A stretch of DNA of 64,000 nucleotides from an uncultured Spirochaetota bacterium. GTDB lineage: Bacteria > Spirochaetota > Spirochaetia > SZUA-6 > CAVTHK01. The notes under the pieces were generated by a model. That model had not been told where the DNA came from. It saw only the letters and a program-made list of their open reading frames with translations, and ran no database searches. The DNA lies in the NCBI GenBank assembly GCA_963734495.1, contig CAVTHK010000010.1:192001-256000 (forward strand), read 5' to 3'. Shown here piece by piece: positions 19,736-35,361 of this stretch (position 1 is the first letter of the stretch; the number at the start of each line of letters is the position of its first letter). The position numbers were made by a program, and so were the translations under genes.

Positions 19736-20449
19736 CTACTGCTTGAGCCAGGACAGAAAACGGTTGACGACGCCGGGAGCCCGGCGGCGCGACGGCGGTG
19801 TGATGCCGCTGAACTTCGAAATATCGTCTTCCATGCCTCCGACCAGGAACACGTCCCCCTCCACGATCCGGTATGCGGGAGTGAAAAAGCTGTACTCCTC
19901 GCCGTCGCCGCGGCGCACGGCGATGACGTTCACGCCGTGCTCCGCCCTGAGATTCGCCTCGATGAGGGTCTTGCCGAAGTAGCGCTCGGGCGGACTGACC
20001 TCGGCGATGACGAACCCGCCTCCCAGCGGAAGAAAGCTGGTGATGGCCGACGAGGCGAGCATGGGCACGACGCGCCTCGCAGCTTCCCGATCGGGGAAGA
20101 TGACGCGATGGGCGCCTACGATCTGCAGGATCTCGCCGTGCTGATCGCTCTCGGCCTTGGCGATGATGTTGCCGACGCCCATCTTCTTGAGGTAGTTCAC
20201 CACCAGGATCGAAGCCTCGAGCTGGTCGCCGAGATCGATGATCGCCGCATCGATGCTCTCGGGCACAAGCCTTCGGATCACCTGCTCGTCGAGCGCGTCG
20301 GCGACGTACGCCAGCTTGACGATGTCTTTGTGCGCCTCCACGGCGTCGCGGTCCTTGTCGATGAGGAGAACGTCCGCGCCAAGCCCCTTGAGCTCCTCCA
20401 GGACCCTGCGCCCGAAGGCGCCGAGACCGATCACGGCAAACTGTTTCAT
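19736..20449 (-). CDS. ktrA: KtrA/TrkA-family RCK regulatory subunit
   Basis: MKQFAVIGLGAFG Rossmann motif, IIAKA..H..IL..VGA..VIFP; RCK_C; TGATG coupling with ktrB. Confidence 0.85.
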   Translation of the reverse strand: MKQFAVIGLGAFGRRVLEELKGLGADVLLIDKDRDAVEAHKDIVKLAYVADALDEQVIRRLVPESIDAAIIDLGDQLEASILVVNYLKKMGVGNIIAKAESDQHGEILQIVGAHRVIFPDREAARRVVPMLASSAITSFLPLGGGFVIAEVSPPERYFGKTLIEANLRAEHGVNVIAVRRGDGEEYSFFTPAYRIVEGDVFLVGGMEDDISKFSGITPPSRRRAPGVVNRFLSWLKQ

Positions 20450-21774
20450 CAGCCTATCAAAACCTCCCCCTGAGGGTAGTCGATGATGCGCGCGGCGCGC
20501 GACCGCCTGTCTCTCGCCGCCAGCGAGATCAGGCCGACGCGGCCGATGAACATCGTGGCGATGATCACGACCTTGCCTGCGGCCGACAGCATCGAGGTGA
20601 TCCCCATGGACAACCCGACGGTCCCGAAGGCGGAGAACGACTCGAAGGCGAGCGAGATGAAGCTCTTGCCCGAACGGTACTCGAACATCAGCAGCAGGAA
20701 CACCGCGCCGGAAAGCAGGCCCAGCGCCCTCACCGCGAACAGGAGCGCGTCGCTTAGCGCGGAGGAGCCCACCTTGCGGTCGAACACCGTGATCTCCCCA
20801 TCCCGGTCGCGGCCGACAAAGAGCTGAAGGTAAACCAGGAATGCGGTGCTCGTCTTGATCCCTCCGGCGCAGGAGCCCGGAGATCCGCCGATGAACATGA
20901 GGACCATGGTAAGCAGCAGCGACGGCGGCGAAAGCTCGCCCTGAGGCAGGGCGTTGAACCCGGCCGTCCGGGGCGTAATCGACTGAAAGAGCGCGTTCAC
21001 CAGCCGGTCGCCGATGCTCAGGCCGGCCATCGTTCGGCCCGCCTCGAAGAGGTAGAAGAGGCCCGCGCCCGCAACGACGAGAGCGGCCGTAACGGTCAGA
21101 ACAATGCGGCTGTGGAACGTCACCGCGCGGGAGCCGAACGCCGCCCGCCGGAGGAGGTCCACAAAGACGACGAAGCCCAGCCCGCCGCATACGATCAGCG
21201 CCGCGATGGTGAGCAGGAGACGCGCGCTGGTGCGGTATGGCTCGAAGCTCGTCCTGAAGGGGGAGAGGCCTGCGTTGCAGAAGGCGGAAACTGCATGAAA
21301 CACGCTCATGAAGACGGGATCCTCGACGCGGCCTCGGAGGAACGGGTAAAGCGCGGCCGTGCCCGCCATCTCGAACGCAAGAGTGAACGACACGACATAG
21401 AGGGTCAGGCGCGCGGGATCGTGCTCGACCAGCGGCAGGGAATAACTCTGCACGAAATAGCGGGCCCGGAATGACATCCGCTTGCGCCCCGGCAGCATCA
21501 GAAAGAGTGTGGTGAACGTGATGAGCCCGAGGCCACCCGTCTGTATCAGGAGCAGGACGACGGTCTGGCCGAAACGCGAAAAATCGGCGATGTCCACGGT
21601 CGCCAGACCGGTCACGCACACGGCAGAAGTGGCGATGAAGAGCGCGTCGATCGGGGCCAACCTCCCAGGCCCGATCCAGGCGCCGGGGAGCAGGAGCAGC
21701 AGCGTGCCCGCGACGATCAAACCGGCAAAGAAGATAAGAAGGAAGGCCCTCGGAGGAACGGCCGCCTGGATCAC
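20449..21774 (-). CDS. ktrB: KtrB/TrkH-family K+ translocating subunit
   Basis: Four pore loops SAVCVTGL, SAFCNAGL, TPRTAGFN, SAFGTVGL; GGIK; MFIGRVG. Confidence 0.88.
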   Translation of the reverse strand: MIQAAVPPRAFLLIFFAGLIVAGTLLLLLPGAWIGPGRLAPIDALFIATSAVCVTGLATVDIADFSRFGQTVVLLLIQTGGLGLITFTTLFLMLPGRKRMSFRARYFVQSYSLPLVEHDPARLTLYVVSFTLAFEMAGTAALYPFLRGRVEDPVFMSVFHAVSAFCNAGLSPFRTSFEPYRTSARLLLTIAALIVCGGLGFVVFVDLLRRAAFGSRAVTFHSRIVLTVTAALVVAGAGLFYLFEAGRTMAGLSIGDRLVNALFQSITPRTAGFNALPQGELSPPSLLLTMVLMFIGGSPGSCAGGIKTSTAFLVYLQLFVGRDRDGEITVFDRKVGSSALSDALLFAVRALGLLSGAVFLLLMFEYRSGKSFISLAFESFSAFGTVGLSMGITSMLSAAGKVVIIATMFIGRVGLISLAARDRRSRAARIIDYPQGEVLIG

Positions 21775-22633
21775 TGGACGGCAACTCTATAGCGGGGGGC
21801 GTTCGGTTTTCAAGGGTCGAGCGTCGTTTTTTCCGTTTCCGCGCCGCCGGCGTTTGAGGCTACCGGCGCCGGAACCGTGGCGTGAGCAGCAGCCGTCTGG
21901 ATTCCTGAGTCGTTCAGCGATCATCGCCAGCCTCAAGGCGGCTTGCAGGGGCTCGCATCCCCCTGCTATGCACGCGGGCGCAGGAGGCGCGGGGCCGAGG
22001 TTCGTCGTTCAGCGATGAAGTGAAAGTCGCAGGCGACGATGATCGCGGCCAATGAACATTGTCAGCACCAGAAAGAGGCGCGGCCATCCATCAGCCTTCG
22101 GGGCTGAGGTCGTTGACGAAGATCGACTGTTCGTATGCCGAAAGACGTCCGACGCATCCGGGCTCTCAATTCGGCTGTTTGACCAGTCCTCTTGTCCTTG
22201 GGATTGAGCCCTTTCGCATTGTAGGGGCGAGCATGGGGACGGAGATCGAGCGGGGCGCGGCTGTCCCTCCGCGCTCCCTTCGCCGGTCTCACGGCCCCGC
22301 GGATCGCCGAATGCTTCCTGTACCTAGCGAAGAAACTCCAGGCGGAGGAAAACAGAACAAGAGAACAGCGACAGGGAGCCGGAGGCGAACTGCCGAAAGA
22401 ACACGGGACGCAGGGGCTGTTCAGGTCCTGCGAGTCCGTTTGAACAGCTTCAGAATCCGCAGGACCAGTTCCACTAGGAACCCGATCATTAGGATCCCCC
22501 TTGGCGGAGGAACGAGTCGCCGGGGCTAACCTTAGCGAGGCGGCCGGTTCCGGTCCCGCGCCTCGCACCTACCTGGGAGTATCCTCAATCAAGTCTCTTC
22601 GCGCAACAGCTCGAGCCACCTCCTGGCCCCTTC

Positions 22634-22698
22634 TTTATGCGTTCTTTACATCCAGTGAGCGAAGTTTGACCCCGTTCTGACACCGGAAGTGGCAAGCT
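22634..22698 (+). promoter_or_regulatory. Predicted KdpE-type direct-repeat promoter of the Trk operon
   Basis: TTTATG-N5-TTTACA (22634/22645), TTGACC-N5-CTGACA (22666/22677), TG-n-CAAGCT candidate -10 at 22693; same spacing as the kdp promoter. Confidence 0.65.
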
Positions 22699-22747
22699 TA
22701 TCCTACCGGCGGTTCGGCGTCATACGACCGCCGATAGGGATACTGGC

Positions 22748-23262
22748 ATGGAACTGATGACTTACATGGAGTGCGACGACGCCTTTGTTGCATTCCCCAG
22801 CGTCCTGCAGGGACTCAGGATGGCGAGGGTCTCATCGAGCGACCTGCTCCTCGTAAGCACGGATCCGGTGCCGGAGGTCGGTGACCTCGTCGCCTTTGTC
22901 GGGTTGTTCAAGGCAGCGGGCGGAGAGGTGGACCGCCTGGGTGTTGCGAGCCCCCGGCCTTCCCTGGGGTGGATCCGCGCCGTGCGCGCCGAAGGTATCG
23001 CAAAGGTCTACTTCGTCGCGTTCGGCCCGGGATCGGACCCGCGGCAGCTGAGCCGGGGCAGTCTGCTGGAGGTCCCGGGGGACATCTGCCCCGCGCTGCA
23101 TGTCCGGATGCTTCGACGGTCAGCCGACGAGCGTCTGCGGGAACAGGTTCGACCAGCTCGTGCTGGGCCGGCGGCAGTTCACGGAGCAGTGCTTTGACCA
23201 GGTGGAGCGAATGCCGCTGGGCCGTCCTGACCGCCGCCCTCGCCACAGCGGCATCGCGATAG
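22748..23262 (+). CDS. Hypothetical protein with C-terminal 4-Cys motif (about 170 aa after repairing two +1 frameshifts near 23112 and 23201)
   Basis: Reconstructed ..DICPALHVRMLDGQPTSVCGNRFDQLVLGRRQFTEQCFDQWSECRWAV..; its TAG overlaps the trkA RBS (TAGGAG). Confidence 0.55.
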
Positions 23263-23271
23263 GAGTTGTCC

Positions 23272-23703
23272 ATGCACATCATCATCGTTGGCTGTGGACG
23301 TGTCGGGTCGGCCCTGGCCGATGCCAGCAGCCGAGGCGGCGACGATGTCGTGATCATCGACAAGGACCCCGGAGCCTTCCGGCAGCTGGGGGCGGGATTC
23401 AACGGCGTCACCATGCGCGGCACCGGCTGCGACGAGGAGCAGCTCCGTGAGGCGGGCATCGAGCGCTGCGACGCCTTCGTGGCGGCCACCGACTCCGACA
23501 GCGTCAACATGATGGCCGCAGAGATCGCCCTGCGCATCTACCACGTCCCGCGAGTTGTGGTCAGACTGTACGAGCCCCAGCACGAGCGGTCGATGCGCGT
23601 GCTGGGACTGGACTACGTCAACGACGCCGCCCTGTCGGTGCAGGCCATCCTCGGGAAGTTGGACGTGGACGTGCTGGCCGGCGACCGGCAGGAGAGCGCC
23701 TGA
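23272..23703 (+). CDS. trkA: TrkA-family protein, RCK_N domain only (143 aa)
   Basis: MHIIIVGCGRVG, IDKD, AFVAATDSDSVN; AGGAG RBS. Confidence 0.85.
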   Translation: MHIIIVGCGRVGSALADASSRGGDDVVIIDKDPGAFRQLGAGFNGVTMRGTGCDEEQLREAGIERCDAFVAATDSDSVNMMAAEIALRIYHVPRVVVRLYEPQHERSMRVLGLDYVNDAALSVQAILGKLDVDVLAGDRQESA

Positions 23704-23704
23704 C

Positions 23705-24434
23705 ATGTTCGTGGCGATCAACGGCGGAGGCGAAGTCGGCTCGTTCCTGGCCCGGACTCTCCTCGGGAAAGGGCACGCGGTGAGCGTCATCGACAAGCGG
23801 TCGGAGGTCATGCGCAAGCTCGCCGAGGAGCTCTCGCCGAACATCCTCCTGGTCGAAGGCGACGGCTGCGACGTTCGTGCCCTGGAGGACGCCGGCGTCG
23901 ATCGAGCTGACGTTTTCGCCTCGGTGACGCCCCACGACGAGGAGAACCTCGTATCCTGCCAGCTGGCCCGCCTGAACTTCGGCGTCCGGCGGGTGGTTGC
24001 CCGGGTCAGCAGCCCGCGCAACGAGGGAGCATTCCACTCTCTGGGCATCGAGGCCATCTCCTCGACCACTGTCATCGGCCGAGCTCATCGAGGAGCAGCT
24101 GACCGTCGGCGACATCATCCGTCTCTACACGCTGCAGAAGGGGCAGCTCGGCCTGGTGGAGGTCGAGGTCCCGGCGGGAGCGTCGGCGGCGGACGGACGG
24201 ACCGTGGCCGAGCTCGGGCTGCCCGATGAAATCGTGCTCGTCTCCCTGACACGCGGCGACCAGCTGCTGATCCCCCGGGGCCGGACCTCCCTGCAGGCCG
24301 GCGACCGGGTGATGGCGATGACCCTGGCGGGACGGGAGCCGGAGCTTGCCCGGCTGCTCCGCGGCAACGGCACGGCGGCGAAGCGCGGCGGCGCGAAGGC
24401 GGGGGGTCATGAACGGCAACGGCGATTACCTTGA
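23705..24434 (+). CDS. trkA: TrkA-family protein (RCK_N+RCK_C), +1 frameshift near 24077
   Basis: GGGEVG, GDG, DEENL..CQLA, VARV; after the shift ELIEEQL..RGDQLLIPRG..LQAGDRV. Confidence 0.85.
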
Positions 24435-24558
24435 CTTTCGGCGGTGGCGTAACATCGTCTCCTACCTCGCCGGGATCGGCGTGGAAACCCTCTTCAGCCT
24501 GGCCCTGGCCGGCATCGGCATGCTGATCGTGGCCGGGTTGCGGATCCTCGCCAGTTAG
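24409..24558 (+). CDS. Small membrane protein, 49 aa
   Basis: MNGNGDYLDFRRWRNIVSYLAGIGVETLFSLALAGIGMLIVAGLRILAS; fills the trkA-trkH gap and overlaps the trkA stop. Confidence 0.65.
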   Translation: MNGNGDYLDFRRWRNIVSYLAGIGVETLFSLALAGIGMLIVAGLRILAS

Positions 24559-24572
24559 CGCAAAGTACGTAC

Positions 24573-26077
24573 ATGCTCCTCAGGCCTCGGGCCGCTGACC
24601 TCAGGGTCATCGGTCTCTACACCGGCAGGATCATCTTCGGTGTTGGGCTGCTGATGGCGGTGCCGCTGGCGACGGCGCTCATCGCCGCGGAGTGGGCCCC
24701 GGCCGTCGACTTCGTCATCGGCATGTGCGCCTGCCTCGCCTTCGGCCTGCTGACCGAGATCGGCTGCCGGACCTCGCGCGATCCCACCTGGACGCACGGC
24801 CTGGTGGTGGCCGGCTTCTCGTGGCTGGCAGCCACGGCCATCGGGGCCATTCCCCACTGGCTCTCGGGCCACTACGGCTCCTTCCTCGACGCCATGTTCG
24901 ACCTGATGAGCGGCTACACCACCACCGGGCTGATCCTCATCCAGGACCTCGACCACGTCTCCCACGGCCTGAACATGTGGCGCTTCCTCCTGACCTACGC
25001 CGGCGGGCAGGGGATCATCGTCATCGCCCTGACCTTCCTCGTGGGAAGCGCTTCGGGCGCCTACCCCATGTACGTAGGCGAGGGCAAGGACGAGCGGCTC
25101 CTGCCCAATGTCATCAGGACAGCCCGGGCCATCTGGCTCGTTTCGCTGGTCTACCTCGCCGTCAGCACCCCGTTCTGTGGATCATCGCGGTGGCGAACGG
25201 CCAGTCGGCGGCCCGGGGGTTCCTCCACGCGCTGTGGATCTCCATGTCGGGATGGTCGACCGGCGGCTTCGCTCCCCAGTCCTACAACACCTACTACTAC
25301 CACTCCCTTGCCATTCGAGCTGGTCAACGGTGGTCATCTTCGTGGCCGGCTCGCTGAACTTCGCCCTGCACTGGGCCGTGTGGACCGGACGCCGGGGCGA
25401 GATCCGCCGCGACATCGAGATCGATCTCCTTTGCGATCACGATGACGATCGCCATGCTCGTGACAACCGCGGGCCTCATGAAGCTGGGGGTCTACCCCGA
25501 CTTTCTCGCCGCGCTGCGCAAGATGTTCTACCAGGTGGTGAGCGGCCACACGACCACCGGCTACTCCACGATCTACTCACGGGCTTTCGTCCGGCAGTGG
25601 GGACCGCTGGCCATGCTCGGGATCACCCTGGCCATGGCCATCGGGGCCAGCGCCTGCTCCACTGCGGGCGGGTTCAAGGGCATTCGCGTAGGTCTCGTCT
25701 TCAAGGGCATCGTGCTGAGCGTCCGTCGCGCCCTCGCGCCCGAGCGCGCCCGTGTGGTCGTGAAATGGCACCACCTCCGCACCCGGGTCCTCGACGAGTC
25801 CACGGTCGCCTCGGCGATGCTCGTCGTCATCTGCTACGTCGCGGTCTACGCGCTGGGGACGCTGGCCGGAGTGCTGTGCGGCTACCCGCTCATCGAGGCG
25901 CTTTTCGATGCGGTGTCGGCCGGCTCGAACTCCGGGCTCTCGTGCGGCGTCACCTCCCCGGCTATGCCCGCCTTCCTGAAGGTTGTCTACATCCTGGAGA
26001 TGTGGGCCGGTCGCCTCGAGTTCATGAGCGTGTTCGCCTTGGGCGGATACGTGATCTCGATCGTCAGGGGGCGGTAG
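24573..26077 (+). CDS. trkH: TrkH-family K+ uptake protein; about 4 frameshifts (near 25170, 25307, 25326, 25427)
   Basis: Pore loops SGYTTTGL, SGWSTGGF, SGHTTTGY, SAGSNSGL; GGQGII, STAGGFK, MWAGRLE spread across three frames. Confidence 0.85.
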
Positions 26078-26082
26078 GCGAA

Positions 26083-26625
26083 ATGATCACGATTCTTGCC
26101 TTCATGCTGGCCGCCGCCTGCTCCAGCTCGGCCCAGATTGCCGAGATCCCGTCCCCGGGCAGCGCGGCGCTTGTCGAGGATGCGAAGGATTGGGACGGCC
26201 GCACCGTCAGTTTCACGGGAGAGGCGATCGGCGAGGCAATGCGCCGGGGCAAGATGGCGTGGATCCACCTCAACGACGACGCCTACGGCCTCGCCCAGGA
26301 CCCGGGCGCGCGGCTTTCCGGGTTCAACAGCGGCATGGCCGTGTGGGTCGACACGCAAATGGAATCCCGCATCGCTTTCTTCGGCGACTACAAACGTCAC
26401 GGCGACGTGGTGGAGGTGAAGGGCATCTTCCACGCCGCCTGCCCGCAGCACGGCGGGGACATGGACATCCACGCTGATTCGCTTCGGATCGTGCGGAGCG
26501 GTCACTTGGTCGCGCGGCCCATAGGCCGTTCGCGCCTTCTCGCGGCCGGCGTGATGGTTGCGCTAGCCGCATTTCTGTTCCTCGTGCGAGCGATCCTACG
26601 ACGACGGGGCGACACGGATCCTTGA
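26083..26625 (+). CDS. Membrane-anchored OB-fold-like protein downstream of trkH
   Basis: N-terminal signal/TM, DGRTVSFTGEAIG..WIHLND..GDVVEVKGIFHAACPQHGGDMDIHA, C-terminal TM followed by basic residues. Confidence 0.7.
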   Translation: MITILAFMLAAACSSSAQIAEIPSPGSAALVEDAKDWDGRTVSFTGEAIGEAMRRGKMAWIHLNDDAYGLAQDPGARLSGFNSGMAVWVDTQMESRIAFFGDYKRHGDVVEVKGIFHAACPQHGGDMDIHADSLRIVRSGHLVARPIGRSRLLAAGVMVALAAFLFLVRAILRRRGDTDP

Positions 26626-26633
26626 AGACAGCC

Positions 26634-26865
26634 GGGCTGCTCTGTCTGCGCGGCCTCGGGGCGCGCTTCACCTCTGCGCCGCTGGGCGCCCTGACCCTGA
26701 AGAACACCGCGAGGGACAAGATGGCGCAGGCCTTGGGTTCAACGTGATCCGTCAGGTGGGCGGCAGCGTAGGCATCGCGGTTCTGGGCGCTATCGAAGCG
26801 CGGCAGGTCGTCTTCCACTCGACCTTCACCGGCCAGGCGATCGACTGGAGCTCGCCCGTCCTTCT
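26634..26865 (+). pseudogene. Remnant of an EmrB/QacA (DHA2) MFS gene
   Basis: LRGLGARFTSAPLGALTL..DKMAQALG / FNVIRQVGGSVGIAVLG..VFH resembles the DHA2 TM12-13 region; no start codon, frame break. Confidence 0.6.
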
Positions 26866-27044
26866 CTCGCCCCTCTTGCCCTGCAGATCCACGAGCTGTG
26901 GGTGAAGCTCCCCGTCGCGGTGGCTGCGGGCACCCGGGGCTCCTTCACAACGGACTCGCCCTTCTCTCGATGCAGCGTAGAAAAGGGCTCGTAAGGAAGC
27001 GTGCGCTCTGCCCGGCGCTCAGGCCGGGACCGCGACGAAGCCCG

Positions 27045-27109
27045 TTTACAGCGCATTTACTCCGGCGCACGGCACTCTTACGCACGTTTTATGCCGTGCT
27101 GGGTACCAT
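27045..27109 (+). promoter_or_regulatory. Predicted KdpE binding sites and -10 of the kdp operon
   Basis: TTTACA-N5-TTTACT (27045/27056), CTTACG-N5-TTTATG (27077/27088), TACCAT at 27104; resembles the E. coli KdpE site TTTATA-N5-TTTACA. Confidence 0.72.
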
Positions 27110-27160
27110 TTGCCCCGTCAGTCGGCGGCGCGGGCGGGCAGCCCCCGCGGAGGAGGAGGC

Positions 27161-27250
27161 ATGGACCGGGTCACCGTGGTCAGCGTGGTCATTGCGATCG
27201 GGGTCTTCGTGGCGATGATCGTCGTGTCGCTGCTCGCAAGCGTTCGTTGA
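27161..27250 (+). CDS. 29-aa hydrophobic peptide, KdpF paralog
   Basis: GAGGAGGAGGC-ATG; MDRVTVVSVVIAIGVFVAMIVVSLLASVR; shares a DNA block with kdpF. Confidence 0.7.
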   Translation: MDRVTVVSVVIAIGVFVAMIVVSLLASVR

Positions 27251-27339
27251 TCGGAGTTCCTTACGCCGAAGAGGCTCGTGATCAGACGAACAGGGCGATG
27301 TAGACGGCGACTGGTGGGTCGCCGCACTGAGGAGGAGGC

Positions 27340-27429
27340 ATGAACCTGATAACCGGGGTGAGCCTGGTCATTGCGATCGGGCTCTTCGTCTACCTGTGCT
27401 GGGCTCTTTTCAAGGCGGAGAAACTATGA
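27340..27429 (+). CDS. kdpF: K+-transporting ATPase subunit F
   Basis: [29 protein letters not shown] (YL.xAL..xEK signature); strong RBS; ATGA overlap with kdpA. Confidence 0.88.
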   Translation: MNLITGVSLVIAIGLFVYLCWALFKAEKL

Positions 27430-29150
27430 ACGGCATATTGCAGATCCTGTTCTACCTTGTCGCCCTGCTCGCGCTCGCCTGGCCTCTGGGCCGCTACATG
27501 GCCAGGGTCTACCAGGGGGAGCGTGTGTTCACGACGCCGGTCTTTGCCGGGCTCGAGCGCCTGACTTACCGGGTGCTCGGCATCGATCCCGCGGCGGAGA
27601 TGGATTGGAAGCGCTACTTCTACTCTGTGCTCGCCTTCAGCGCCGTGGGCTTCGTGGCGCTCTATGCGCTGCACTTCCTGCAGGGCGTGCTCCCGCTGAA
27701 CCCCGAGCACCTCGGTCCGACATCGTGGCACCTGGCCTTCAACACCAGCGTCAGCTTCGTCACGAACACCAACTGGCAGGCCTACGGAGGCGAAACGACC
27801 CTCTCCTACTTGACTCAGATGCTGGGCCTCACCGTGCAGAACTTCGTCTCGGCGGCCGCAGGGATGGCCGTGCTCGTGGCCGTCATCCGCGGCTTCGTAC
27901 GAAAGGAAGCGTCGACGATCGGCAATTTCTGGGTGGACATCACCCGCACCGTGTACTACATCCTGCTGCCGCTGGCTTTTGTCGTGGCCCTGATCCTCGT
28001 GTCGCAGGGGGTCGTGCAGACCTTTAGTCCCTACGCGCATGCGACGCTGATCGACCCATACCAGCTCCAGGACGGCACCAAGGTCACGGAGCAGACCATC
28101 GCAGTCGGCCCCGCGGCGTCGCAGATCGCGATCAAGCAGCTCGGGACAAACGGCGGTGGATTCTTCAACGTGAACTCTTCGCACCCCCTCGAGAACGCTA
28201 CGCCCCTCTCGAACTTCGTCGAGATGATTTCGATCCTGCTGATCGGCGCTTCCTTGTGCTTCACCTTCGGAGCGATGGTCAAGGAGCACAGGCAGGGCCG
28301 GGCCTTGCTCTGGACCATGGTGGCGCTCTTCGTGCTCTTCATCGTCGTTGCATTCGTTCCCGAGACGCGGGCGGGCGCCGGGCCCGACGGCGGCGTCGCG
28401 GCCGTCAACGGGACCGCGGGCAACATGGAAGGCAAGGAGGTTCGGTTCGGCGTGCCCAACTCCGTTCTGTGGGCGGTCGCCACGACCTCGGCCTCCAATG
28501 GCTCGGTCAACTCGATGCACGACTCCTACACGCCGCTCGGCGGCCTGGTTCCGATGTTCATGATGCAGCTCGGCGAGGTGGTGTTCGGCGGCGTCGGCTC
28601 GGGGCTCTACGGCATGCTGCTCGTCGCCCTGCTCGCGGTCTTTATCGCCGGCCTCATGGTGGGACGCACCCCGGAGTACCTGGGCAAGAAGGTGGAGTCC
28701 TACGATATGAAGGCTGTCGCGGTCGGCATCCTCATCACGCCGCTGGTGGTGCTCGTCGGCACCGCCATAGCCGTGGCGACGCCCTACACGGTCGCCAGCA
28801 TGAGCAATCCGCTGCCTCACGGCTTCAGCCAGGTGCTCTACCTCTACACCTCGCAGGGCAACAACAACGGGAGCGCTTTTGCCGGCTTCAACGCCAACAC
28901 GTGGTTCTTCAACGTCTCGGGCGGCATCGTGATGCTGATCGCCCGGTTCGCGCCCATGGGGGCGGCACTGGCCGTGGGCGGGTCGCTCGCGCGCAAGAAG
29001 ACGGTGCCCAAGAGCGAGGGCACGTTCCCGACCGACGGAGCGCTCTTCGTGGCGCTCCTGGCGGCCGTCATTCTCATCGTGGGAGGCCTCAACCACTTCC
29101 CGGCCCTGGCCTTGGGTCCGCTGGCCGAGGGCTTCACATCCGGATTCTAG
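27426..29150 (+). CDS. kdpA: K+-transporting ATPase subunit A
   Basis: NTNWQ, TNGGG, SNGS, NNGSA filter motifs; [10 protein letters not shown]. Confidence 0.96.
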
Positions 29151-29244
29151 GACCATGGATGGTCCTGCCCGCGGGCGCCAGGGATGGCATAGCCCACGGG
29201 ATCTATGGTCGCGCGCCCGGCGCGCGCCGCCTGAGGAGGAGCGT

Positions 29245-31290
29245 ATGTTCAAGAGCGCAAAGGGAATCGCAGCTCGGGCGATCCGCGACAGCTTCGCGAA
29301 GCTCGATCCCAGGGTGCAGGTCCGCAACCCTGTGATGTTCGTGGTGTTCGTCGGGGCGATCCTGACGACACTCGTGTACGTCGCAGCCCGCTTCCAGCCG
29401 GACCTCGCGACGTCGCCGGGGTTCGTGGGATCGGTGTCGATCTGGCTTTGGCTCACGGTGCTCTTCGCCAACTTCGCGGAGGCCGTGGCCGAGGGCAGGG
29501 GCAAGGCGCAGGCCGAGGCCCTGCGCAGGGCCAGGCAGGAGGTGCCGGCCCGCAAGCTGCGGGAACCGCGGCCGGACGCCGCGTTCGACGAGGTCGCCTC
29601 GTCAGATCTCTCGGCAGGCGACCTGGTTCTGGTCAAGGCCGGCGACGTCATTCCGGGCGACGGCGAAGTCACCGAAGGCGTGGCGTCGGTGGACGAGAGC
29701 GCCATCACAGGCGAGAGCGCCCCGGTCATCCGGGAGAGCGGTGGGGACCGCAGCTCCGTTACCGGCGGGACGCGCGTCATCTCCGACTGGATCATCGTTC
29801 GGATTACCGGAAAGAGAGGCGAGAGCTTCCTGGACCGCATGATCGCCATGGTCGAGGGGGCAAAACGCCAGAAGACGCCGAACGAGATCGCGCTGAACAT
29901 CCTGCTGGCCGCGTTGACGATCGTCTTTCTCGTAGTGACTGTCACTCTCTATCCCTACAGCGTCTTCAGCGTCGAGCAGATCAAGTCGGGGCGCCCGGTG
30001 GACGTCGTGTCGCTGGTCGCGTTGCTGGTCTGCCTGGCTCCCACTACGATCGGAGCCCTCCTTTCGGCCATAGGAATCGCAGGCATGAACCGGCTCGCGC
30101 GCGTCAACGTGATGGCGATGTCAGGCCGCGCCGTGGAGGCCGCAGGCGACGTAGACGTGCTGCTCCTCGACAAGACCGGCACCATCACGCTGGGCAACAG
30201 GCAGGCATCCGCGCTCATCCCCGCTCCCGGGGTCTCCCCGGAGAGCCTGGCCGACGCCGCCCAGCTCAGCTCGCTGGCTGACGAGACTCCCGAAGGCCGC
30301 AGCATTGTGGTCCTCGCCAAGCGCGACTTCGGCATCCGCGGCCGTGAGCTCGTCGATCTCAAGCACCGTTTCATTCCGTTTTCAGCCAAAACCAGGATGA
30401 GCGGGATCGACCTCGGAAGCAGGCAGATCCGCAAGGGGGCCGTGGACGCGATTCAGCAGTTCGTGGCGGCAAAGGGCGGCGCCGTGCCAGGGCCGATCTC
30501 GCAGAGAGCGCAGGCGGTCGCACTGGAGGGCGGTACGCCTCTTCTGGTCGCGGAGAACGACCGCGTCCTGGGGCTGGTGGCGCTCAAGGACATAGTGAAA
30601 CATGGCATCAAGGAGCGCTTCGCACAGCTGCGCGGCATGGGCGTGAAGACCGTGATGATCACGGGCGACAATCCGAACACGGCTGCTTCCATAGCCGCCG
30701 AGGCAGGTGTGGACGACTTTCTCGCCCAGGCAACCCCCGAAGCCAAGCTCAACCTGATCCGCGACTACCAGAAGGGGGGCCGCCTTGTGGCGATGACCGG
30801 CGACGGCACCAACGACGCCCCTGCGCTGGCCCAGGCTGACGTGGCCGTGGCCATGAACGCGGGCACTCAGGCGGCCAAGGAGGCCGGCAACATGGTCGAC
30901 CTGGACTCCAACCCGACCAAGCTGCTCGACGTTGTCCAGATCGGCAAGCAGATGCTCATCACGCGTGGCACCCTCACCACGTTCAGCGTGGCCAACGACG
31001 TGGCCAAGTACTTCGCGATCCTGCCGTCGATGTTCGTGGGAACCTACCCGGCGCTCGGGGCCCTCAACGTCATGGGTCTCCACACGGACACTGCCATCCT
31101 GTCGGCAGTGATCTTCAACGCGCTGATCATCGTGGCCCTGATTCCCCTCGCGCTGCGGGGAGTCGCCTACAAAGCCATGTCGGCGGCGCGGCTGCTCAAG
31201 CGGAATCTCCTGGTCTACGGCCTGGGAGGGTTGATCGCCCCCTTTGTCGGGATCAAGGTGATCGATCTCCTGTTGGGAGGAATTAGATGA
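29245..31290 (+). CDS. kdpB: K+-transporting ATPase subunit B (P-type ATPase)
   Basis: [42 protein letters not shown]. Confidence 0.97.
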
Positions 31291-31883
31291 AGAATCGCGT
31301 CTGGTTGCCTTCGATCATCCTGCTTGTGGTTATGACTGTGCTCACCGGAGTCGCCTACCCCCTGGTGGTCACGGCTGCCGGGCGGCTGCTGTTTCCCTCG
31401 CAGGCGAGCGGGAGCCTGGTAACCCGCGGCGGGCAGGTCGTCGGCTCCGCCCTCGTGGGACAGCAGTTCACCTCCGACCGCTACTTCTGGGGCAGGCCCT
31501 CGGCAACAGGCCCGATGCCCTACAATGCCGCGGCATCCTCCGGGAGCAACCTGACCCCGAGAGGCGACGCGCTGAAACAGCAGGTCGCAGATCGCGTCGA
31601 CGCGCTCAGGAAAGCCAACCCTGACGCGCGCGGACCTATCCCTGCCGACCTGGTAACCGCCTCGGGGAGCGGCCTCGATCCTGACATCGCCAGGGCGGCG
31701 GCGCTGTACCAGGTGCCGCGTGTCGCAAAGGCGCGCAACGTCCCCGAGGACCGCGTGCTCGCCCTCGTGGCACGAGTGTCGCAGGGGCGTCAGCTCGGCT
31801 TCCTGGGGGAGCCGCGGGTCAATGTGTTAAGATTGAACCTGGCGCTGGACGAAGCCTTTGGAGAGCGCGTAGGAGGACGATGA
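31287..31883 (+). CDS. kdpC: K+-transporting ATPase subunit C
   Basis: [43 protein letters not shown]. Confidence 0.96.
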
Positions 31884-34558
31884 GCGAGGCGGGCGAACCG
31901 CGGCGACCAGATCCGGATCAGCTGCTGAAGCAGGCGCGGGCCGACGAGTCGACAAAGGGGAAGCTGAAGGTCTTCTTCGGATACGCCGCGGGCGTAGGCA
32001 AGACGTACGCGATGCTCTCCGAAGCGCGCAGGGAGCGCGATGAAGGCACCGACGTCGTCGCGGGCTACATCGAGCCCCATGCGCGCCCGGAGACCATGGA
32101 GCTGATGGAGGGGCTGGAGGCGCTGCCGCCGAAGATCGTCGTCCACCGCGGGATCGCGCTGCAGGACTTTGACCTGGACGCGGCGCTCGCCCGCAGGCCT
32201 GCGCTTGTCCTCGTCGATGAGCTGGCCCACACCAACGCGCCCGGCATGCGGCACGCGAAGCGCTGGCAGGACGTTCGGGAGCTGCTCGACGAAGGAATCG
32301 ACGTCTACACCTCGCTCAACGTGCAGCACATCGAGAGCCTGAGCGACGTCGTGGCGAGCATCACGGGCATCGTCGTGAACGAAACCGTGCCCGACACGCT
32401 CTTCGACGAGGCGGAGCGCATCGAGCTCATCGACCTGCCGCCGGAGGAGCTGGAGGAGAGGTTCCGCGAAGGCAAGGTCTATATCCCGGCGCAGGCCGAG
32501 ACCGCCATGCGCAACTTCTTCCAGAGGCCCAAGCTGGTGGCCTTGCGGGAGATCGCGCTGAGGCGCATGGCCGAGCAGGTCAACCGGTCGGTACAGGACC
32601 TGCGACTCCAGCGGCCTGGTGCGGCGATCTGGCCGACCGTCGAGACGCTCCTGGTCTGCGTGGGGCCAAGCCCCTCCTCGGCCACCGTGATCCGAAAGGC
32701 ACGGAGGATGGCGGCGGCGTTTCACGCCCGCTGGGTGGCACTCCACGTCCGCCAGCCCGGCATCACGCTCGGGGCGGCCGTGCAGGAGAGCCTGCGGCGC
32801 AACCTGGCGCTTGCCGAGAGCCTCGGCGCCGAAGTGGCCGCGATCCAGGCCGAAGGCAACGACGCGGCCGCCGCGATCGTGAGCTACGCGGGCCTTCGCA
32901 ACGTCACAAAGATCGTCATCGGCAAGAATCTCTCCCCCTTTCGCCCGCTTCAGCACCTCCGGGGTGACCTGGTGGATCGACTCCTGCACGCCAGCGGCGA
33001 CATCGACGTGTACGTCATTCCCGGCGAGACGGAACAAGGGGCCGCGACCCGCGAGTCCCCGACGCGCCGTGGCTGGAGCGGGTTTTTCGGATCGTTCCTG
33101 GTCATGATCGGCACCGTGGCGCTGGCCGCGTGGCTGCGCGGACTCGGCTTTGCGCTGCCCAACGTGATCATGGCCCTGCTGCTCGGCGTCGTAGCCTGCT
33201 CGTTGTGGTTCGGCAGTCGTGCCGGTATCGCCGCTTCGGTTGTCGGCGTGCTCGGGTTCAACTTCTTCTTCACTGAGCCGTACTTCACATTCGCGATCAG
33301 CGACACGCAGTACGTCATCACATTCTTCGTCATGCTGTTGGTAGCCCTGTCCCTCAGCACCCTCACCTCAAGGGTCAAGCGCCAGGCGGTGATGGCGCGC
33401 CAGCAGGAATGGCGCACGGACGCTCTCTATCGGCTCTCCAAGGTGCTCTCCCGCACGCCCGGCCGCCTGCCGATCGTGACAGCCGCGCGGGAGACGCTGG
33501 CGGGAACTCTGCGGGCCGACTTTGCGATATTCCTCGAGGAGGGCGGGCGAGTTCTCAAGGTCGAGAAGGAGGCCCTCACCTCGATCGATAACCGGGAGGA
33601 GGCCGTGGTCACGTGGGTCCTGCGCAACGGCCAGCCGGCCGGCCAGGGAACCGGGACCCTCAGCGCAGCCGATGCGCTCTACCTCCCGCTCAAGGGGAGC
33701 CGCGACGTGCTGGGCGTGCTCAGCGTGCGTTTTCACAACCCGCGCGACCTGGCGTTCCGCGACCTTCGGAACCTCATCGAGACCTTCGCCGCCCAGATCG
33801 CGGTCGCCCTCGAGCGGGAGGAGCTGTCGAAGACCTCGCAGGAGGCCATGGTCAAGGTCGAAGGCGAGCGGCTGCGCACCTCGCTGCTGCGCTCCATCTC
33901 CCACGACCTGCGCACCCCGCTCGCAGGCATCGCAGGATCGGCCAGCGTGCTTCTGGACAGGCTGCATGACCGCAGCGGAGTCGAGGAGCGCGAGCTGCTC
34001 GAAGGGATCGCGGAAGAGGCCGCCTGGATGACACGTACCTTCGACAACCTGCTGAGCCTCACGCGGCTGGAATCCGAGCGCGTGGATCTGCGCACCGAGC
34101 CCGAGGCCGTGGATGACGTGGTGAGCTGGGCGCTGCAGACGGCGGCCAAGCGGACCGAGGGCCACGAGGTCCGCGTAAGCCTGCCGGAAGACGTGCTCAT
34201 CGTCCGCATGGAGAGCGGGCTCATCGCGCAGGTGCTGGTGAACCTGCTCGACAACGCCGCGAAGTACTCGCCGCCGGGGACCACCATCGACGTCTCGGTG
34301 CGGCGCGAGGACGGGCGCGCGGCGTTCGAAGTGGCTGACCAGGGACCCGGCGTGCCTCCGGCGGAGAGTGAGCGGATCTTCGACAAGTTCTACCGCCTCC
34401 GCGAGCACGCGAGCCGGACCAGGGGGACCGGCCTCGGGCTTTCGATCTGCAAGGCGATCGTTGACGCTCATGGCGGGTCGATCGCTGTCCACCCCCATGA
34501 AGGCGGAGGGAGCCGCTTCGTGTTCACACTCCCTCTGGAGGCTGACGGTGAGCGCTGA
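31880..34558 (+). CDS. kdpD: Sensor histidine kinase KdpD
   Basis: [26 protein letters not shown] domain, 4 [19 protein letters not shown]. Confidence 0.96.
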
Positions 34559-35247
34559 GCCTCTCGTGCTCGTGGTCGAGGACGACCGGCAGATCCGGAG
34601 ATTCCTGCGGGCGTCCCTTGCGACCCAGGCCTACCGCCTGATCGAGACCGACAAGGGTGATGAAGGGCTGTCCCTCGCCGCCTCCCACGTGCCCGACGTC
34701 GTGGTGCTCGACCTGGGGCTTCCGGACATGGAGGGCGTCGAGGTCATCCGCAGGCTGCGCAAGTGGTCGGCGGTTCACGTCATCGTCATCTCCGCCCGCG
34801 GCCAGGAGCGCGACAAGATCGCCGCCCTGGACGCGGGAGCCGATGACTACCTCACCAAACCCTTCGGCGTGGGCGAGCTCCTCGCCCGCCTCCGAGTCGC
34901 CCTACGCCGGTCAGCGGAGCGGCCCGGACCCGCGGAGCAGGCCGGAATGCTGCGGGTGGGCGATCTCGAGGTGGACCTCGAAGCGCACCGGACCTTCCTC
35001 GCCGGCGAGGAGCTTCACCTGACGCCCATCGAGTTCAGGTTGCTCACAGTTCTGATGCGCAACGCGGGAAAGGTGCTCACGCACACCTACCTGCTGAATG
35101 AAGTGTGGGGGCCGGGCAGGGGCGATCAGAGCCACTACGTGCGCATCTACATGGCCGGGACTGCGCCGGAAGATCGAGCCCGATTCGGCCCGTTCGCGAT
35201 ACATCTTCACGGAGATCGGGGTGGGTTACCGGTTCGCGGACGAGTAA
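34548..35247 (+). CDS. kdpE: Response regulator KdpE; +1 frameshift near 35158
   Basis: [28 protein letters not shown]; after removing one [25 protein letters not shown]. Confidence 0.92.
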
Positions 35248-35361
35248 GCGACGGGCTCGGATCCTGCTCGAAGGCCCGGCTTCAACACCTGGCTGCGGCA
35301 TGGGCCGCGGCGTGGCGCTGCCTCTGGCGCGCGAAGGGTCCTTGAGCCTATAATCCGCGGC

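Follow-up and report, generated by a model that had tools for sequence, protein, structure and literature searches.

The 64-kb stretch of DNA analysed here (the window: contig CAVTHK010000010.1 of an uncultured Spirochaetota bacterium, positions 192,001 to 256,000) carries a six-gene trk cassette, orf1-trkA1-trkA2-small open reading frame (ORF)-trkH-accessory gene, followed on the same strand by a kdpF'FABCDE operon; a ktrB-ktrA type operon lies divergent to the cassette. Our subject is the trk promoter at 22634, which an earlier note had read as the twin of the kdpF' promoter, proposing that one KdpDE pair induces both the high-affinity Kdp pump and the Trk channel. The hexamers given there are exact, both upstream of trk (22634 TTTATG, 22645 TTTACA, 22666 TTGACC, 22677 CTGACA, with CAAGCT at 22693) and upstream of kdpF' (27045 TTTACA, 27056 TTTACT, 27077 CTTACG, 27088 TTTATG, with TACCAT at 27104); and both promoters do share the offsets 0/11/32/43 for the four boxes and 59 for the -10. 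The promoter features are as follows:

22634-22650, plus strand: trk promoter boxes 1-2, TTTATG-N5-TTTACA, the equivalent of the E. coli KdpE footprint pair; TTGACG/TTGACG-type in relatives
22666-22682, plus strand: trk promoter boxes 3-4, TTGACC-N5-CTGACA; same hexamers in L030, L031, and L159; box 4 is a possible sigma70 -35
22693-22698, plus strand: weak -10, CAAGCT, at offset 59; TAGACT, TAGATT or TAGAAT in relatives
22699-22704, plus strand: alternative -10, TATCCT, at offset 65, 16 bp after CTGACA, from the promoter scan; no conserved counterpart in relatives
22702-22738, plus strand: 5'-leader hairpin extending into the ribosome-binding site (z -1.9)
27045-27109, plus strand: kdpF' promoter, four boxes at 0/11/32/43 and -10 TACCAT at 59
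21784-21813, minus strand: sigma70-like ktrBA promoter, TTGAAA-18-TAGAGT, outside the genome's top four-box sites

Some descriptions in the earlier note stand only in part. The two promoters were called AT-rich patches, and the GC content of the 65-bp promoters is indeed 49% and 54% (68.6% for the window), a modest difference that comes partly from the boxes themselves. At offset 59, kdpF' has a -10 in TACCAT, but CAAGCT is a poor -10 for trk (2/6), though it aligns with TAGACT, TAGATT or TAGAAT in the relatives. For the ordinary sigma70 promoter claimed for the divergent, minus-strand ktrBA operon there is a sigma70-like match 850 bp upstream of the trk promoter, which agrees with the consensus at only 9 of 12 positions.

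The geometry of both window promoters is that of E. coli kdpF, which in the annotated K-12 record reads TTTATA/TTTACA/TTTGCG/TTTGCA/TACCCT at 0/11/32/43/59; kdpF' and the trk promoters of four relatives share with it the -10 at offset 59. The E. coli KdpE operator, TTTATA-N5-TTTACA, corresponds to the first two of these repeats (PMC3264566; papers cited by accession are represented here by excerpts, to which our statements are limited), and TTTATG-N5-TTTACA at 22634 and TTTACA-N5-TTTACT at 27045 each show one mismatch to E. coli-type TTTA(T/C)A-N5 repeats. The repeats at 32 and 43 are clear boxes in the window but degenerate in E. coli (TTTGCG, TTTGCA), where they fall outside the 30-bp probe of the excerpted study (PMC3264566). 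The likeness extends from the half-site type and the 11-bp period to the full-length KdpD, the kdpFABCDE operon, and the residues by which E. coli KdpE contacts DNA (R193, R200, and T215; PMC3264566), all of which have encoded equivalents in the window KdpE, those of R200 and T215 downstream of a frameshift in the assembled sequence. Unlike in E. coli, a second predicted operator stands here before a TrkAH-type operon.

A matrix trained on the four E. coli hexamers alone was used to scan both strands of the 5.38-Mb genome, and it ranked the kdpF' promoter 1st (29.9) and the trk promoter 2nd (24.5), with the third site at 20.4. A four-box pattern, drawn up post hoc, has two matches genome-wide, trk and kdpF'; with any of 34 other middle spacings it has none. 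A similar four-box pattern, run over 251 genomes of a class that contains the Myxococcota, gave 2 matches versus 2 control matches; both real matches adjoin kdpD/kdpE. Most runner-up matches of the matrix come from the part of contig C3 that holds a second rpoB-rpoC copy (G000 C3:43503-50324), which is AT-rich, heavily frameshifted, and probably foreign DNA in the bin. Two genomes of the class that contains the Myxococcota have TTGAC-type four-box sites by kdpD/kdpE (L231:159-206 and L230:1501-1548), with downstream genes unmatched by K+ transporter queries. A pho box was rejected for the window sites: their half-sites are TTTA(C/T) and (T/C)TGAC, not the TGTCA type that recurs at several promoters of the phosphate regulon, and a pho-like pattern gave two unrelated matches.

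Using the accessory protein as query we retrieved 80 loci (the best 80 of 481 matches); the closest three among the matches listed, L030, L031, and L032, share 74-87% nucleotide identity with the window over the cassette and keep orf1, as does L159, the one usable locus of two from a metagenome scan with orf1. The motif is conserved upstream of these orthologous trk operons: boxes at 0/11/32/43 are found in all four closest cassettes, they are mostly TTGAC, they are followed by TAGACT, TAGATT or TAGAAT at 59, and they are kept while the spacers diverge. kdpD comes directly after the cassette in L030-L032, and so does kdpE where the contig extends far enough; the L030 KdpD has the same full domain set as the window KdpD (KdpD, Usp, DUF4118, GAF, HisKA, HATPase). 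The three genomes (completeness 99%, 94%, and 60%) gave one KdpD match each, a single match to the four-box pattern each, and no KdpA match. With kdpD(E) behind the cassette and no KdpA match, their KdpDE has no visible target other than the trk operon. That the nearest cassettes have their own kdpDE and no detectable kdpFABC was not in the earlier note, and it sets these relatives apart from E. coli: no pump turned up in them, which leaves Trk/Ktr as the sole target in view. The cassette marker, the accessory gene, was absent from the matches in 400 genomes drawn from the phylum, and the TrkH subfamily of the cassette occurs in 6 of 92 genomes of the order but was not found in the congener G001. 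In deltaproteobacterial-type loci (L033, L050, L055, and L059), the trk cassette lies within or beside the kdp cluster, behind a kinase or regulator gene.

Upstream regions could be scored for 66 of the 80 loci (14 were left out, the first gene or 350 bp upstream being missing), for which we used a matrix derived solely from two kdp promoters and a threshold of 13 set after the scores had been seen. Scores of at least 13 were reached by 7 of the 12 regions adjacent to kdpD/E versus none of the 54 others. The top seven scores run from 34.5 to 13.4, all with kdpD/E in the locus, the last two being a two-box pair only; the best of the 54 loci without kdpD/E reached 10.7. Five of these seven also rank highest by a consensus-free periodicity score (50-61; next 31). 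The Fisher p of 1e-6 (7/12 versus 0/54) is not used as evidence, since the threshold is post hoc and the kin are not independent. The same four-box 0/11/32/43 build, with a -10 region at 59, occurs at kdpF promoters of Coriobacteriia and one Bacillota genome (L113, L114, L116, L123, and L238-L243).

A second spirochaete twin comes from another family: genome G009 has the cassette upstream of kdpABCD. Its trk and kdp promoters are twins of the TTAGCG box type. In a spirochaete subtype of kdp promoter (L180-L196 of genus g2, L029, and L178), boxes of TTAGCG type stand at 0/11/32, together with a GAAAT-like element, and the -10 is found at +71, not +59. A model with TTAGCG boxes and the -10 at +71, trained on 17 of 18 kdpF upstream regions of a sister genus without the cassette, gives the kdpF promoter of G009 a score of 32.3 and its trk promoter 28.5, the next site in 20 kb being at -14; the G009 pattern has exactly 2 matches in 5 Mb, having been derived from those two sites. 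In G522, whose gene order is trk-kdpD-kdpE and which gave no KdpA match in a genome 68% complete, the model scores the trk promoter at 40.3 and the next site at -16.

Across the 92 genomes of the order, KdpE was matched in 31 and KdpA in 21, and in 8 of the 10 KdpE-only genomes kdpD/E adjoins a Trk/Ktr membrane gene: four have the cassette; three (L232, L233, and L234) have a four-box site before ktrB-kdpD-kdpE; and in one, kdpDE and another trkH are divergent, the boxes being on the strand of kdpD. In the remaining two, kdpD/E is near a contig end. The three genomes with ktrB-kdpD-kdpE gave no KdpA match and these stretches no ktrA match, and their sensor is without the N-terminal KdpD domain. 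The alignment to the KdpD model starts at position 398 for the sensor of L039 and at 252 for that of L233, so that both are without the N-terminal part. At L235:7663-7764, KdpE-type boxes directed toward kdpDE overlap an opposite-strand TTGACA just upstream of a different trkH, and repression of that trkH is possible.

In a KdpE tree of 40 rows, the cassette-linked proteins form the L030 clade (100/99), the TTAGC clade (100/99), and a group of L039, L094, and L104 (98/87); the window KdpE stands apart from all three. Box type tracks the KdpE clade: TTGAC goes with the L030 clade and TTAGC with the G009/G522 clade. We rejected a code set by a single residue of the recognition helix (Y = TTTAC, F = TTGAC), since RVFM goes with TTTATG boxes in G510 and RVFI occurs within the TTAGC clade, in G034 and G535; box type follows the clade and not that residue. 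KdpDE control of this Trk cassette is likely, and it appears to recur with several KdpE lineages.

The trk promoter of the window itself seems to have changed box type. Compared with L159 and L030, boxes 3-4 are identical, whereas boxes 1-2 differ at four positions, from TTGACG/TTGACG to TTTATG/TTTACA; L031 and L032 are mostly TTGAC as well, so that by parsimony the TTTA state of the window is derived. Both TTTATG and TTTACA occur in the kdpF' promoter, and the genomes with the nearest KdpE proteins (G510 and G521) have TTTATG/TTTACT boxes. L238, however, has a natural kdpF promoter that mixes TTTA and TTGAC boxes; therefore, a mixed trk promoter alone is no proof of retuning. The argument is post hoc, and we take it as suggestive only that boxes 1-2 were retuned toward the KdpE of the resident pump.

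The explanation we favor, and hold with reasonable confidence, is that the element at 22634 is a predicted KdpE operator-promoter of the kdpF' build, and that phospho-KdpE activates both operons. The inference of KdpDE control made in the earlier note thus gains sequence support from the conservation of the boxes in 4/4 relatives, the adjacency of kdpD/E among the 66 loci, and the G009 twin. Upon K+ limitation, KdpD would phosphorylate KdpE, as is established in E. coli; phospho-KdpE would bind the 11-bp-spaced direct repeats at both promoters, chiefly boxes 1-2 and perhaps 3-4, and would activate kdpF'FABCDE and orf1-trkA1-trkA2-small ORF-trkH-accessory from the -10 at 59, a step best supported in the relatives. 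One signal would then call up both a channel and an ATP-driven pump, with ktrBA providing basal uptake. Most likely, the cassette originated in a lineage without a Kdp pump, where it had TTGAC boxes and a kdpDE of its own. It now stands before a kdp operon with a different KdpE, and parsimony suggests that its two distal boxes have shifted to the TTTA type.

The genes on either side of the two promoters are as follows:

19736-21774, minus strand: ktrB-ktrA type operon, divergent; away from the cassette in relatives
22748-23262, plus strand: orf1, 170 amino acids, no Pfam match; frameshifts near 23111 and 23197; four invariant Cys and one His in the C-terminal third
23272-23703, plus strand: trkA1, TrkA-N domain only, 143 amino acids; equal length in L030
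23705-24412, plus strand: trkA2, TrkA-N and TrkA-C; frameshifts near 24081 and 24391
24409-24558, plus strand: 49-amino-acid ORF with a hydrophobic C-terminal half; kept in relatives
24573-26077, plus strand: trkH, of a divergent TrkH-family subfamily; frameshifts near 25169, 25313, 25326, and 25424
26083-26625, plus strand: accessory protein of 180 amino acids with hydrophobic ends, no Pfam match, 437 homologues; the cassette marker gene
26715-26904, plus strand: remnant of an EmrB-like MFS gene that is complete on contig C3 (73% identity); a scar at the trk-kdp junction
27161-27250, plus strand: kdpF', hydrophobic peptide of 29 amino acids, no Pfam match; partial kdpF duplicate, 87% over 61 nt
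27340-27429, plus strand: kdpF, PF09604, TIGR02115 above cut-off
27426-31883, plus strand: kdpA, kdpB, and kdpC, open frames
31880-34558, plus strand: kdpD, full length (KdpD, Usp, DUF4118, GAF, HisKA, HATPase)
34548-35250, plus strand: kdpE, frame broken once, at a G run near 35150, within the DNA-binding domain

The closest homologues of the window are Spirochaetota records. Like TrkAH/KtrAB, the cassette pairs a TrkH-family membrane protein (PF02386) with RCK subunits (PF02254, PF02080), all above cut-off; unlike them, it adds three genes of no known family. TIGR00933 scores the intact TrkH orthologue of L030 at 207.8, below its cut-off of 331, and the best NCBIfam match of the window KdpE is KdpE, at 251.8 bits against a cut-off of 325, scored on the truncated frame. 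The orf1 family has 25 homologues, one of them fused to TrkA-N (P0144), with invariant C114, H118, C130, C148, and C155, which possibly form a metal site. For orf1, no Pfam or NCBIfam family was found, atlas matches reached at most 0.76, and Foldseek gave none at E 0.001 or better; its best structural Z, 6.1, is with receiver domains (residues 2-108) and may reflect a mere common arrangement. The accessory protein matched only unnamed atlas clusters, with OB_2TM_halo at 0.81 as a lead. kdpF' and kdpF (27150-27389) are a partial tandem duplication that includes the ribosome-binding site, and G521 and L240 also have two small peptides before kdpA. On contig C3 (G000 C3:241621-243894, L164), a C-terminal kdpE fragment that shares 81% identity with the window KdpE (121 columns) is found close to the intact MFS gene whose remnant separates trk from kdp in the window; we read this as a vestige of an old duplication or rearrangement. 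By blastn, the stretch 21781-22640 has no other match in the genome or the fetched loci, and the approximately 830 bp between ktrB and the trk promoter (21781-22610) are of locally lower GC content (56% at 22000-22199). The promoter/terminator scan found no terminator-like site between the trk and kdp operons, so that read-through is possible. The ktr and trk genes of Firmicutes are under the control of cyclic di-AMP (c-di-AMP) riboswitches or repressors; an Rfam search of the whole window at the gathering threshold returned 0 families, and thus no known c-di-AMP riboswitch there. The 5'-leader hairpin was rejected as a conserved switch: its z of -1.9 in the window compares with -0.9 to +0.5, not significant, in four relatives.

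Several observations qualify the case for KdpE control of trk or weigh against it. The two-box pattern alone is unenriched, with 2 matches versus 0-4 at other spacings, so that the signal is carried by location and the four-box build. Five of the 12 loci adjacent to kdpD/E score low: in four of them trkA comes directly after another gene, and the fifth, L108, is without a clear four-box site though the kdpF promoter of its own genome has one. The boxes are absent from 54 of the 66 cassettes, including four in genomes with a four-box kdpF promoter: in these Coriobacteriia, the kdpF promoter is four-box with a -10 region at 59 and scores 29-35, while their own trk cassettes score 1-7. By eye, several cassettes without boxes show plain -35/-10 pairs. 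Since most cassettes are without boxes, even beside four-box kdpF promoters, the control is lineage-specific. In the window, the trk -10 at 59 has decayed to CAAGCT, and CTGACA-16-TATCCT is a regulator-independent candidate promoter 6 bp downstream. Sinorhizobium fredii KdpE binds the kdpFABC promoter, as would be expected here, but in electrophoretic mobility shift assays it binds neither trkA nor kup, in a genome that also has Trk (excerpt of PMC9239096).

The frameshifts count on the same side. In the cassette there are 8 that affect coding sequence, six being insertions of a single base, versus 0 in three relatives and 0 in the 7 kb of kdpFABCD, a clustering with p about 0.001; and kdpE has one, in a G run. 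One may ask whether the cassette lost its former kdpDE on arrival and is now decaying, its boxes persisting without function. The clustered frameshifts and the weak -10 would fit this, as would the 60/70 window-specific non-synonymous/synonymous changes against 50/81 on the L030 branch, although that difference is not significant (p 0.21). No in-frame stop, however, was gained in 1263 cassette codons, most of the indels (6/8) are single-base insertions, leuS is likewise split into two frames in this assembly, and frameshift calls range from 0 to 8 per 10 kb by contig (2 on the contig of the window). Other housekeeping genes (the host rpoB, rpoC, and ileS) are intact. Contigs of four sequencing runs at 80% likeness belong to other organisms and are uninformative on the frameshifts. 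The frameshifts in the cassette and kdpE are probably assembly errors. Moreover, the four changes in boxes 1-2 all give hexamers of the kdpF' promoter, an outcome not favored by drift, and we consider a functionless relic improbable.

A different role for KdpE, repression, also deserves attention: trk would be read from the sigma70 pair CTGACA-16-TATCCT, and phospho-KdpE on boxes 3-4 would cover the -35, so that low K+ swaps a low-affinity channel for the pump. The promoter scan scores this pair 9/12, and the -10 at 59 differs at three positions from the relatives' TAGACT, with TATCCT at position 65; in Mycobacterium smegmatis, trk genes fall under K+ limitation, but they do so in kdp mutants too (excerpt of PMC5401905). 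Repression nevertheless seems unlikely to us: four close relatives all keep a good -10 at 59 and none conserved at 65, an activator geometry identical to that of kdpF is the rule where trk is the only visible kdpDE target, and the TTTA-type changes fell in the distal boxes, those used by E. coli KdpE for activation. Nor need the reader of the repeats be KdpE. In the OmpR/PhoB family generally, as with pho boxes, repeats have an 11-bp period and the -10 lies 10 bp after the last repeat, so that another member (e.g., of PhoB or PhoP type) might read them. Cross-talk of PhoB with Kdp has been discussed in E. coli (excerpt of PMC5934670). Yet just two such sites stand out genome-wide, both at K+ operons; box type shifts with the KdpE clade; and both blind matches in 251 other genomes adjoin kdpD/kdpE, which makes another regulator very unlikely. 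Chance resemblance might be invoked for hexamers picked by eye with an unenriched two-box pattern, but we find it scarcely credible for a site that ranks second genome-wide with an outside matrix, and whose boxes are kept in four relatives as the spacers diverge.

KdpE control of a Trk operon, if true, would change the usual picture of a constitutive Trk and an inducible Kdp. TrkAH/KtrAB are described as constitutive in excerpts of three papers (PMC3610689, PMC5934670, PMC5401905), one of which, a 2013 review, calls Kdp the sole bacterial K+ system under strong transcriptional control (PMC3610689), and another presents E. coli KdpE as a single-target regulator (PMC5934670). KdpE targets beyond kdpFABC, as proposed here, have been reported in Staphylococcus aureus and enterohaemorrhagic E. 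coli (PMC3610689) and in Caulobacter (10.1101/2023.07.05.547876); but the excerpts name virulence or general genes as targets and mention no further K+ uptake system under a copied kdp promoter, and the Caulobacter motif is unrelated to the window boxes (10.1101/2023.07.05.547876). A search of the full-text literature, covering titles and the starts of abstracts, gave no report of a KdpE-controlled trk or ktr operon; most subscription papers, RegPrecise-type databases, and the supplementary tables of the Caulobacter ChIP-seq study were outside its scope.

It is possible, and we put it forward tentatively, that KdpDE is a portable K+-sensing module that was coupled several times independently to Trk/Ktr; that the six-gene cassette provides inducible K+ uptake in place of the Kdp pump in some lineages, its three unfamilied proteins being real subunits or regulators; and that this genome is in the midst of rewiring, with its own kdpDE lost and boxes 1-2 retuned from TTGAC to TTTA. 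KdpE control of Trk, if true, would account for the kdpDE pairs in genomes without kdpFABC; and the three box types (TTTAC, TTGAC, and TTAGC), each with its matching regulator, offer material on shifts of specificity in the OmpR family.

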